From Octopus vulgaris (taxonomy: Eukaryota): DNA of 64,000 nt. Of this stretch, positions 39,504 to 44,425 are shown piece by piece. Position 1 is the first letter of the stretch, and the number at the start of each line of letters is the position of its first letter. The DNA is taken from NCBI GenBank assembly GCA_951406725.2, contig OX597825.1, positions 39,804,001 through 39,868,000 of the forward strand, in the 5' to 3' direction. Made by a program: the position numbers and the translations under genes. The notes beneath the pieces are model-generated. The model did not search any database. It was not told the DNA's origin and was given only the letters and a program-made list of their open reading frames with translations.

Positions 39504-39895
39504 ACTGAAAGACTTCGCCAGGTGGTGCTATTAAGTTAGACATGGCCTGGGCCAATACTGGCCAAAAACCTTTCTAAGTTATTCTAAGTTATATATAAAT
39601 ATATATATATATATATATATATATATATATATATATAAATAAAAATAGGAGATAAATAATATTAATTTTAATATCAATTTAAAACCAGTAGTCCAGCATT
39701 CAAAAAATCTGAGGAGTCAGAGAAAATTCAAATATATGTGTATATTGGCGGCCTGCTAGGTAGCCGGCCAGAATGCTAGAAATAGATCATCAACGATCAA
39801 ACTACAAGGGAAATTCTCTAGAGAAGTATTCAGCGAACACCAGAACCAAATTTGGCGGGCAGGACATATGAAAAATTAAATAAATAACAGACTTA

Positions 39896-39971
39896 AATGC
39901 ATACCTCGGTTTCGGTCTTAACAAAAGAATTACTTGCATAATTCAAGTGTCTGTGACTTCTTCAGTACATT
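39896..39971 (-). ncRNA. Type I hammerhead ribozyme motif (family A)
   Basis: Reverse strand: aatgta CTGAAGA agtc..gacc GAAAC cgag GTA tgcatt. Confidence 0.82.
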
Positions 39972-40522
39972 CGGTCCTCGAGATGCAAACCGCAAGACTA
40001 ACCCCAGCTCTCTGTGTCAAGACAGACACGTGCTTATCTTATATTACATCGGGAATAAAATTTCAAATGTCTTGGTTTTCATGTCCTGCCCGCCAAATTT
40101 GGTTCTGGTGTTCGCTGAATACTTCCTCTAGAGAATTTCCCTTGTAGTTTGATCGTTGATGATCTATTTCTAGCATTCTGGCCGGCTACCTAGCAGGCCA
40201 GCCCTGCCAATATACACATATATTTGAATTTTCTCTGACTCCTCAGATTTTTTGAATGCTGGACTACTGGTTTTAAATTGATATTAAAATTAATATTAAT
40301 TTATCTCCCTCAATTTTTAAATATTTAAATAAATACGTTCCCTAGTTGTAAGCAATACCCGCAGTGAATTATTCACTGCAGACCTTCGCTTGAGGAGTCT
40401 CTCAACGCGCCGGAACCAGGACATTTGAAATTTTATTCCCGATGTAATCAGTAAGACTAAGCACGTGTCTGCTTTGACACAGAGAGCTGGGGTTAGTCTT
40501 GCGGTTTGCATCTCGAGGACCG

Positions 40523-40598
40523 AATGTACTGAAGAAGTCACGGACACTTGAATTATGCAAGTAATTCTTTTGTTAAGACCGAAACCGAGGTATGCATT
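40523..40598 (+). ncRNA. Type I hammerhead ribozyme motif (family A)
   Basis: aatgta CTGAAGA agtc..gacc GAAAC cgag GTA tgcatt; intact core, predicted cleavage after 40592. Confidence 0.85.
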
Positions 40599-43297
40599 TA
40601 AGTCTGTTATTTATATAATTTTTCAAATGTCCTGCCCGCCAAATTTGGTTCTGGTGTTCGCTGAATTCTTCCTCTAGAGAATTTCCCTTGTAGTTTGATC
40701 GTTGATGATCTATTTCTAGCATTCTGGCCGGCTACCTAGCAGGCCAGCCCTGCCAATATACACATATATATGTATATATATATATATTCCAAGAAAGACG
40801 TTGTGAATCCAACCAAGTAAGGGATAGTATCTATCCAATATACTGCTGGTAGATTACCCAATTATTAATGCACAAGTGTTTTTTATGCATTGAAATTACA
40901 TTATCGATTAAGGGTATTTTAATGTTATTTTAAGAGTGCAATAAGAAAATGGAGGGGATAAATATGTGGTATTCTTCAACTTTAGACATTATATTATGTC
41001 AATTCCTTTATTTATTTACTTAAAGGACAAATTCAGCATTATACATACATGTATAACATATTATGTTTTACATATATAATATATAATATATATATATATA
41101 TATATATATTTCAACAATTTCTGGTATCTTTATATATTATATATGTAAAGCATCATAAGTTATGCATGTATGTATAATGATGTAATTGTCATTTTAGTTA
41201 ATAATTAAATAAATAGACATTATATAATCTCTAAAAGTTGATGCATACCACCTATTGATATCCTCCATTGTTTTATTGCTATCTCTCTCTCTCTCTCTCT
41301 CTCTCTATATATATATATATATATATATATATATATACTTATAAACATGTATGTATATATGTATGTGTGTCTATATATATATATATATATATGTGTGTGT
41401 GAGTGCATAAATAATAGATAGATAGATGAATTGATAGGCAGCTTCACAGATAATAAGTTTAGCTGAGATTCATAAAGATTATTGACGATCCGATGAACCT
41501 ATAGTGTGCTACACAAGCAATCAGCAGGGGCGGCGTTGCACCTTAGAGCTGCAATACATGTGAGTTAATAAAGTCAATGCATCCTTTTGTATTCCTTTCG
41601 TCTATAAATTTGTTATTAATGGTCTGTGCTCGAACTGTCGATTAGTTCTGAAAGAATGTACATATATCGAAATGTTGCACCAGGTTATTAGTATTAATAT
41701 GACAAAGCTACATAATAATAATAATAATAATAGTTTTTTTAAAATTATTATTATTAATATAGCACAAATGCACACACAAACGCACATACACACACGCATA
41801 TACATACATATATATGTACATATATATATATATATATATATATATATATATATATATATATATATATATATATATATATATATATATATATATATATATA
41901 TATATATATATATATATATATATATATATATATATATATATATATATATTTATGCATATATGACTACTTAAAATTATACAAATATTTTTGTAATTGTAAA
42001 AGATATTTAATAGTTTTCAAAATAATGTTATTTATGATTGAGAAATCAATTCTTATGGGTTTACCTTAATTGAGTATCTCATTATTATTGATTCCAGCGG
42101 AATGAACAGTTTTGCCTGGACCTATTGTTCATGTTCGTCTAACCTATTTTTCTGCCTTTGTTAGTCAAAATAATCACAATAGTTGTTCCATTAAATGCAT
42201 TCATCTTTTTAATTTCACTCGTAGAGTGATTAGCTGTCACGATCTGACATGATAGATTGCAGAGATACAATTAAGATGAAATGATTAGAGACAAAGGGTG
42301 CAGAATCGAGATATATTTGGGTGGGGAGAGAATCAATAAAATATACAGTAATGTGAAATAAAATTTCATAAATATATAAAAAATGTATAAAATATATAAA
42401 AAAGGATGACATTTTTTTATCTAATGAAAATATGATTTAGAACATCTAATGTTTTGTATGATTGTAGTGCCAAAGGCTACAGTAACTTGAAAAGCACAGT
42501 AGTAATGTGGCAATAACTTCAGGCTCTTCTAACAAAAATGTTTGTGGTAATTTGATTACATACAATATAATATTCTAAGTTACTTGTTTTGTTTATTTAC
42601 TTTTTTATTTTAGTCTTTATGTTAATTGTATTCTCTTAGTTTCTAATCTTACAATTTTATTAGTAGCCTAAGAACATATAAAATTTAAAACTTCGTTTTA
42701 AGTTTTACTCATTGTTTTGTTGATAAATTAAATAATTATATAGAAAATTTTAATTATTGATGAAGAGTAGGCTAAATGTTTATAGCTAACTTTCATTCTA
42801 TTATAACAGGAGGCATGAGAGGTAAACAAAGTTACTTAACCACTTGCCATCCTTAGGATTACTGCCGTTTCGCAACATCCTGCATGTAACACCTATTTCA
42901 ATGTATAGTAAATAACGTTTACATGTCTGCTCTTATATGCAAACTTGCTACACATTATACAATAGCATTTTATATTCACAAATCAATACAGAAAAAAATG
43001 CTACCTATCAGGTGACCACAACATCATGGTTACGTCAATGATTCAACGTATACAGATATGTATACACAAACACATACATATATATGTATATATCCATCAC
43101 GTCTGTATGTTTATATATAAATATGTATGTACGTATATATATGTATATATATATATATATATATATATATATATATATATATATATATATATATATATAT
43201 AGTAAAAAATTTAGATTAAGTTGAATATCGTACTTCAGTTAAACGCACCAGAATTTAGTATGGTATTATCCATATAATTCGAAATGGGGTGATTGTC

Positions 43298-43339
43298 ATC
43301 GAAATAAGCAACAAGGATATCCTTGTTGCTTATTTCGAT
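43298..43339. repeat. Perfect 42-bp palindrome made of the family B 3' end
   Basis: atcgaaataagcaacaaggat|atccttgttgcttatttcgat; the arm matches 24160-24182 and 34765-34788. Confidence 0.92.
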
Positions 43340-43374
43340 ATATATATATATATATATATATATATATATAGTAG

Positions 43375-43685
43375 AAATATGTTATAAAAAGAAAATACAA
43401 AAAAAATACAAGTGGAAATGTAAGGGTAAAATATGAAACATCAACGAAAATGCCCATTGCAAATGAAAAAAAGGCTATTTATGACAGGTAATGACAAATA
43501 TATACATTTAGGTTGACTGAGGTAGTAATAAGAGTCATAAAAGTCATTGTTATGAGATGATTATAAGATGATAATAAAGTAAGAGGACAAAGCGAACCAT
43601 GGTTTACGCAAAGCTATTCATCAGGGCTGCACACAGACGGGACAAATTACAAGGTAGAGCGTTTCTTTAGGGAAAAATATATAAG
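43375..43685 (-). repeat. Copy of the 9960 repeat with a degenerate hammerhead-like motif
   Basis: Reverse strand agccCTGATGAatagctttgcgtaaaccatggttcgct; homologous to 9960-10210. Confidence 0.7.
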
Positions 43686-43741
43686 TATATATATATATAT
43701 ATATATATATATATATATATATATATATATATATGTATGTA

Positions 43742-44425
43742 TATATTGGCAGGGCTTACTGCTAGGGAGTTGGCCGTATGCTAGAAATAGTCCATCAACG
43801 ATCAAGCTGCAAGGAAATTCTCTAGAGGAAAAATACAGCGAACACCAGAACCAAATCTGGCGGGCAGGACAAATGAAAATTTATATAAAAAACAGAATTA
43901 AATGCATACCTCAGTTTCGGCCTTTAACAAAAGAATTACTTACGTAATACAAATGTCCGCGCTTCTTCAGTGCATTCGTTCATTGTAATGTAAACTAGAA
44001 GACTAACCCCAGCTTTCGTGCCAGTACAGACACGTGTATAGTTTTACCGATTACACTAGTGATAAAAGTTCAAATGTCTTGGTTCTGGCGCGCTAAATAA
44101 TTCCTGAGGCGAAGGGCTGCAGTAAATAATTCACTGCGGTTGGTGCTTACTACTAGAGAATGTATTTATTTCAATATTTAAATAATGAGGGAGATAAATT
44201 AATATTAATTTTAATATCAATTTAAAACCAGTAGTCCAGCATACAAAAAATCTGAGAAGTCAGAGAAAATTCTAATATATGTGTATATTGGCAGAGCTTA
44301 CTGCTAGGGAGTCGGCCGTATGCTAGAAATAGACCATCAACGATCAAACTACCAGGAAATTCTCTGAGCAAAAATACAGCGAACACCAGAACCAAATTTG
44401 GCGGGCAGGACAAATGAAAATGAAA
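43742..44425 (-). mobile_element. Second, more diverged family A retrozyme-like element (542-bp period)
   Basis: tattggcag.gcttactgctaggg at ~43744 and ~44286; colinear with 40078-40770; (TA)n flanks. Confidence 0.88.
43901..43976 (-). ncRNA. Type I hammerhead ribozyme motif (family A)
   Basis: Reverse strand: aatgca CTGAAGA agc..ggcc GAAAC tgag GTA tgcatt; perfect 6-bp stem I. Confidence 0.8.

Follow-up and report, generated by a model that had tools for sequence, protein, structure and literature searches.

Animal retrozymes without long terminal repeats (LTRs) are non-coding and highly self-paired, have a G+C content under 45%, carry one type I hammerhead with a palindromic helix III per unit and coexist with Penelope-like elements (PLEs) (PMC7229834; 10.64898/2026.07.22.740005). 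They have been proposed to be non-autonomous derivatives of PLEs and are defined by two consecutive hammerhead units (10.64898/2026.07.22.740005). How retrozymes enter genomes is an open question, as is the function of the Penelope hammerhead: a circular template has been proposed for retrozymes (PMC7229834), and cleavage was unnecessary in vitro (PMC11167929). Here we describe a 542-546-bp non-coding unit that is present in three copies in a 64-kb stretch of Octopus vulgaris contig OX597825.1, hereafter the window, to which all coordinates refer. The unit shares the listed features of retrozymes and is very probably a non-autonomous Penelope-type hammerhead element. It differs from animal retrozymes in that the window holds dispersed copies of about 1.27 units in (TA)n instead of at least two hammerheads in tandem, in that its hammerhead is of the PLE type and probably not canonical, and in that its cleavage and circles are predictions. 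Because two consecutive hammerheads were not found in the window, the unit is filed as a non-autonomous Penelope-type hammerhead element and not as a proven retrozyme. The claim of the original prediction that it is larger than typical animal retrozymes holds against the 170-400 nt of invertebrate units (PMC7229834), but not against the 51-972 bp given for animals (10.64898/2026.07.22.740005).

Insertions of PLEs are characterized by a partial tandem arrangement, an inverted 5'-truncated copy and a one-sided tail, and those of the Hydra clade lie in (TA)n (PMC8557442). In vitro, the Poseidon enzyme of the anole introduces nicks into both strands of AT-rich DNA and extends them; it initiates within its RNA, at an AC-rich stem-loop that lies downstream of the hammerhead, a tail remains between its two start sites, and it works with uncut RNA (PMC11167929). 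The octopus insertions resemble endonuclease-bearing (EN+) PLEs, as described for the Hydra clade (PMC8557442) and Poseidon PAc (PMC11167929), in these insertion features, in the (TA)n target, in a hammerhead near the 3' end and in a 3' end at an AC-loop hairpin. They differ in having no open reading frame (ORF), in a tail of ~84 nt as against 30-40, and in the distance from the cut to the first 3' end, which is 171-177 nt in the unit, ~85-92 in PAc and 30-36 in a Penelope relic of the same window; this relic, the one PLE compared, has no sequence match to the unit. The Chlamys elements, such as MRC1, are likewise non-coding, pseudo-LTR-forming and microsatellite-biased dependants of PLEs; they differ in occurring in green algae, in mostly lacking a canonical hammerhead and in resembling their partners at the 3' end (PMC8557442).

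Repeat structure of the two loci

Self-BLAST and alignment placed the three copies of the unit at two loci, and a descriptor found an intact type I hammerhead motif in each of them, as originally predicted. Main copy A (40076-40770, plus strand) comprises ~1.27 units. Counted from the predicted cut, with +1 as the first base after it, this copy begins at +28, runs once round the unit and continues to +171 to +177, where it ends in (TA)n. By self-BLAST its direct repeats span 40076-40229 and 40620-40775 with a period of 544-546. Head-to-head to it, with a 2-nt overlap at the junction, lies an inverted 5'-truncated copy (39648-40077, minus strand), which begins at about +367, passes through the hammerhead and stops at about +261; its 3' end lies in the (TA)n tract 39590-39641. 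Read from 40077 to 39648, it matches 40414-40775 and then continues to the equivalent of 40308, ~84 nt beyond the 3' end of forward copy A. Main copy B (43733-44421, minus strand) represents a second subfamily with (TA)n on both sides, a 5' end at +20 to +28 and a 3' end at the same hairpin as in A. Its direct repeats lie at 44421-44275 and 43880-43733 with a period of 542, and its identity to A is 86% (self-BLAST); the aligned units differ by 68 substitutions in 538 columns (12.6%).

The template was longer than one unit, as the original prediction had concluded and as is seen both in the 1.27-unit copies and in the extension of the inverted copy past the forward end. The two main copies do start and end at nearly the same points, but they are not freely permuted, as the 3' ends recur at an AC-loop hairpin and both long copies begin just after the predicted cut. 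Terminal direct repeats, previously put at ~140 bp and now at ~150 bp, are present and do not include the hammerhead; they correspond to the stretch 3' of it. In copy A the 5' repeat (40076-40225, plus strand) differs from the 3' repeat (40620-40769, plus strand), which lies entirely 3' of the hammerhead, by a single substitution over 148 columns. All three copies have a perfect join at the predicted cut site.

The unit has no convincing ORF, in agreement with the first reading of the sequence. With the unit read as a circle, the longest ATG ORF of A encodes 40 aa in sense and 64 aa in antisense direction; the latter is not kept in B, where it is reduced to 28 aa, and no ORF was conserved between A and B. 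A tblastn search of 39600-44500 with eight PLE proteins gave no match at E up to 10, and an ORF combining reverse transcriptase and GIY-YIG domains was not found between the repeats. The G+C content is 0.39 in A and 0.36 in B, with 64% and 62% of the bases predicted to pair in the circle. The sense strand folds better than its shuffled versions (z scores of -5.05 for A and -2.62 for B; 25 shuffles each) and also better than the antisense strand (-3.00 and 0.01). The two halves of the unit are predicted to pair with each other in both copies, and a long-range helix between 40092-40111 and ~40407-40427 (plus strand) is predicted in A and B alike. The arms of this helix coincide with the inversion junction of locus A.

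Each direct copy has one hammerhead in ~1.27 units, and the two hammerheads of locus A lie on opposite strands. Two hammerheads on the same strand, which an active retrozyme requires (10.64898/2026.07.22.740005), are present at neither locus in the window, so that no 545-nt monomer or circle can be released from these copies. They are likely dead ends for circle production.

Structure of the predicted ribozyme

A strict type I hammerhead descriptor applied to both strands of the window returned exactly three matches, one per copy, and matched none of 500 dinucleotide shuffles of the unit. The motifs lie at 40518-40604 on the plus strand in copy A (predicted cut after 40592), at 39890-39976 on the minus strand in the inverted copy (after 39902) and at 43895-43981 on the minus strand in copy B (after 43907). 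In copy A, stem I consists of 7 bp with a 3-bp extension. The core (40529-40535) is followed by an unpaired A (40536) and by an extended stem II (40537-40579), which is built of a 2-3-bp base, two further helices and a GNRA tetraloop (40557-40560). An unpaired C (40580) and the GAAA segment (40581-40584) precede a near-palindromic stem III, whose self-duplex has a predicted energy of -6.6 kcal/mol in A and -4.0 kcal/mol in B.

Between A and B, 12 differences occur within 40518-40604, about the same rate as in the whole unit, and no change breaks a hammerhead pair or touches the core, whose conservation had been claimed before. In the drawn structure of the three copies every one of the 74 cells pairs; one of the changes is two-sided, and three are one-sided. 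The original prediction described a diverging stem II loop; the insert is instead a conserved, structured helix with a GNRA cap, because the A/B changes keep its pairing and a 40558 C>T variant found on 13 contigs keeps the GNRA loop.

Judged by its sequence, the motif is a Penelope-type hammerhead, with an extra base after A9, a long helix II and a palindromic helix III, and probably not one of the canonical loop-loop type. As regards the loop 1-loop 2 contact, the extended helix II differs from the canonical 4-bp form; in mussel retrozymes this contact is missing (PMC7229834). With the minimal hammerheads of PLEs the motif shares the unpaired base after A9, the long helix II, the small palindromic helix III and the predicted activity as a dimer (PMC4209133). 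It departs from them in a helix II of ~43 nt that contains two internal loops and ends in a conserved GNRA cap, in the unpaired C before GAAA and in the 7+3-bp helix I. The PLE hammerheads, which are predicted to act as dimers, were weakly active in vitro (PMC4209133), and for the octopus motif self-cleavage is a prediction.

A search with hammerhead models, proposed earlier as a check, failed to recover the motif: Rfam gave no hammerhead among 140 matches in the whole window (E up to 1) and none among four matches in 39640-40780 (E up to 10), where a tRNA match was absent as well. This miss is likely due to the long helix II. One exact hammerhead pattern had no match in metagenome_contigs and none in viral_contigs.

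Ends of the insertions

A (TA)n tract follows each of the three 3' ends, and such tracts border both loci on either side. The 3' ends fall at two sites ~84 nt apart, at +171 to +177 in A and at the equivalent position in B, and at about +261 in the inverted copy. The first site is marked by a weak AU hairpin whose loop is CACA (40208-40224, plus strand); this hairpin does not vary between the internal copies of A and B, and its 3' counterpart (40755-40769) is the end point of both. Three further contigs of a DNA sequencing run, X1, pass into (TA)n at 40223. These ends point to the CACA-loop hairpin as a putative start site of reverse transcription. The ~84-nt tail between the two 3' ends (40226-40308, plus strand) is the most conserved part of the unit, with four A/B differences in 40226-40325 as against 8-12 per 50 nt in 40326-40575, and is a candidate protein-binding site. 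At the other end, both long copies begin 20-28 nt after the predicted cut.

A Penelope relic as internal comparison

The window also contains a 5'-truncated coding Penelope relic of the Hydra type (17975-18985) with a GIY-YIG ORF at 18264-18827 on the minus strand. The GIY-YIG domain showed 37-45% identity to the C-termini of eight longer proteins, seven of which have the reverse transcriptase motif YRDD. Pfam gave no match for the relic ORF, and its motifs CxCX5C, CxxC and CxH match the Hydra clade. The relic has the same anatomy as locus A, namely a hammerhead variant of its own, an inverted 5' copy and (TA)n on both sides, here made by a coding PLE. Its 3' ends lie at +30 to +36 and at +102, ~70 nt apart. 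In both copies of the relic's hammerhead, core position 4 is occupied by C and GAAA is preceded by an additional U; the predicted cuts lie after 18014 and 18882. The relic shows that Penelope-type machinery acted in this genome; because it has no detectable common sequence with the unit, it is not a proven partner of it. Comparison of the unit with the relic and four other repeats of the window revealed no similarity above shuffles, and no related hammerhead accompanied three weak GIY-YIG-like matches (at 55375, 22818 and 62135).

Another insertion with Penelope-type anatomy is a (TA)n-flanked composite at 52144-53024. Its direct repeats lie ~251 bp apart (52141-52270 and 52392-52523), followed by an inverted copy (52301-52601 against 53024-52737), and no intact hammerhead was found in it.

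Copies in sequencing runs

Among 24 sequencing runs listed for the unit, 20 contained part of it and three contained half of its words or more; no RNA run was among the listed holders. Contigs of four runs (X1, X4, X5 and X17) were compared with the unit. In X1, which may come from the same sample as the window, 945 contigs matched: 342 at an identity of at least 99%, 257 at 95-99%, 226 at 90-95% and 120 under 90%; the summed contig depth in this run, up to 3.7e5, is not a copy number. The run X5, from a second organism, had 20 matching contigs. X4 with 14 contigs and X17 with one are only guessed to be RNA and have no bearing on expression. The family is multi-copy, with many diverged copies.

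The share of contigs running on into unlike sequence was zero in X1 and in X5. Contigs of 277-453 nt were colinear through the unit, and none of the 12 loose contig ends shown (76 more lie beyond these) leads to unrelated sequence. At the join over the predicted cut no indel was listed in the four runs at a threshold of 3%. One contig has another strand-switch joint, between 40171 and 40488. A joint from 40694 to 40150 was considered as evidence of an array or circle and rejected, as it falls inside the terminal repeat.

Neighbouring repeats

Directly upstream of locus A lies an apparently intact long interspersed nuclear element (LINE; 35254-39580), which ends in short repeats before the (TA)n tract. 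It encodes a 413-aa ORF with a weak Myb/SANT match and a 1043-aa endonuclease-reverse transcriptase ORF; the best match of the LINE protein among 120 matches listed, and the single one given with a species name, was from Argonauta hians, with 59% identity, which weakly points to a cephalopod. A short repeat between (TA)n tracts occurs twice (9960-10215 and 43372-43676; 91% identity over 196 nt), and one of its copies adjoins locus B; near 43620 its minus strand contains half of a hammerhead core without a descriptor match. Fold-back inverted repeats, resembling miniature inverted-repeat transposable elements or arranged head-to-head, were found at 29293-29938, 40938-41279 and 34317-34549, the first with 240-nt arms that are 96% complementary around a microsatellite. 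A Tc1/mariner remnant (16519-17875) has inverted ends (16519-16756 and 17875-17650) and a match to a transposase helix-turn-helix domain. Two 3' fragments of reverse transcriptase elements (25015-26942 and 56758-57466) end in long (TAA)n runs and may be Dong/R4-like.

Discussion

The anatomy of the insertions suggests the following route. A tandem source locus elsewhere in the genome would be transcribed, and the upstream hammerhead of the transcript, acting as a dimer through its palindromic stem III, would cut and set the 5' end of the RNA, while the downstream hammerhead would stay uncut. A borrowed Penelope reverse transcriptase-endonuclease would then nick a (TA)n microsatellite and start copying inside the RNA, either at the AC-loop hairpin, 171-177 nt beyond the downstream hammerhead, or at a site ~84 nt farther along. 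Copying back through the downstream hammerhead and one whole unit, with a stop near the cut 5' end, would yield the 1.27-unit copies A and B, and priming from both target strands would yield the head-to-head pair of locus A. By analogy with the in vitro steps of Poseidon, copies A and B may have been made in the same way with a borrowed enzyme. The start positions of the two long copies, shortly after the predicted cut, slightly favour a linear, ribozyme-cut template over a circle. We consider the whole mechanism with a linear template evenly balanced between right and wrong. The stronger claim, that the insertions record a complete Penelope cycle with fixed internal starts, priming from both strands of (TA)n, a hammerhead-set 5' end and a linear template, appears rather unlikely.

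Several observations weigh against this interpretation. The covariation of hammerhead pairs was not significant with three rows, as 171 of 500 shuffles scored as high, the energy of the catalytic fold is 4-8 kcal/mol higher than the minimum predicted for the monomer, and an extra A.C at the foot of stem II is a further point of doubt. Among retrozyme dimers of Xenopus, one of nine cleaved in vitro (10.64898/2026.07.22.740005). At -0.3 to -1.1 kcal/mol the AC-loop hairpin has little stability, and no such hairpin is predicted in the Penelope relic. The argument from the 5' ends draws on two copies, and for each stop there is a local alternative: at locus A it may be due to an inverted-repeat arm, and at locus B to a microhomology, TATATA, between copy and target. 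The inversion joint 40171/40488 does not lie at the predicted cut. The search for common sequence between relic and unit remained negative (26-80 of 200 shuffles scored as high; nhmmer; tblastn), and neither an autonomous partner of the unit nor a tandem source locus was seen in the window.

A circular template is the most serious alternative, which we regard as possible though doubtful. In this case monomers from a dimer locus would be ligated to a 545-nt circle, and a Penelope enzyme would copy more than one round from the same internal site. The perfect join at the predicted cut in all three copies, together with the lack of listed indels at this join in the four runs, is what such a circle would leave, and so is the near identity of the terminal repeats of copy A. 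The 62-64% pairing and the G+C content of 36-39% are as described for retrozyme circles (PMC7229834), and a circle would also explain the origin of new dimers. It leaves unexplained, however, why the second pass ended 20-28 nt past the junction in both long copies, no locus of the window can make a monomer, and the anole PLE uses uncut RNA in vitro (PMC11167929). The linear template proposed above does explain these stops.

It is highly improbable that the copies are only pieces of an autonomous Penelope element with coding capacity, be they pseudo-LTR or untranslated-region fragments or the product of a single internal deletion. This explanation draws on the PLE-type hammerhead and anatomy and on the fact that most such motifs belong to truncated PLEs, including pairs on opposite strands 100-700 bp apart (PMC4209133), a range into which locus A falls with 690 bp. 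It conflicts with the 542-546-bp period, which recurs in two subfamilies that differ by 12.6% and has no ORF between the repeats, with the colinear contigs of 277-453 nt and the 12 loose ends shown, none of which leads to unrelated sequence, and with the pairing between the two halves of the unit in both copies. The original prediction, which had weighed the same possibility, is upheld on this point by the lack of an ORF between the repeats and by the colinear contigs.

Similarly improbable is an element resembling a short interspersed nuclear element that derives from cut linear monomers, made tandem by template jumping, or is mobilised by a LINE enzyme. Template jumping, too, would stop close to the cut 5' end, and LINEs are present in the window, one of them with an intact 1043-aa ORF. 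Against this stand the precise junctions in all three copies, the absence of a tRNA match in Rfam, of poly(A) and of a LINE-type 3' repeat, and the internal 3' ends in (TA)n with a one-sided tail, which match the Penelope relic. A hammerhead-like motif that arose by chance or is dead, within a satellite or a local duplication, would agree with the negative Rfam search and with a cleavage activity that is predicted only, but is scarcely credible given that none of 500 shuffles matched the descriptor, that the insertions are dispersed with defined ends, that changes keep the structure and that many variants occur in two organisms.

The class of elements itself has already been described, and the octopus family is a further member. 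No cephalopod example was seen in the texts of PMC7229834 and 10.64898/2026.07.22.740005, whose supplements may list cephalopod repeats. An annotation of O. vulgaris reports 190 Penelope-like families, and the terms 'hammerhead', 'ribozyme' and 'retrozyme' are absent from its supplement (PMC13282606). Judging by listings, the literature on hammerheads in octopus and other cephalopods holds no description of this 545-bp family, which may already be catalogued in the O. vulgaris library, Dfam or Repbase. Its hammerhead variant is missed by Rfam, and the family is probably an unannotated part of a cephalopod repeat landscape. Because its many copies are inserted singly at dispersed sites and their ends can be read, circular and linear templates become distinguishable by counting 5' and 3' ends in one assembly. 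If the proposed mechanism is true, a retrozyme-like element would move via a linear, ribozyme-trimmed, partial-tandem RNA and not via a circle, and the Penelope hammerhead would gain a demonstrable role, in a variant with a GNRA-capped extended helix II.

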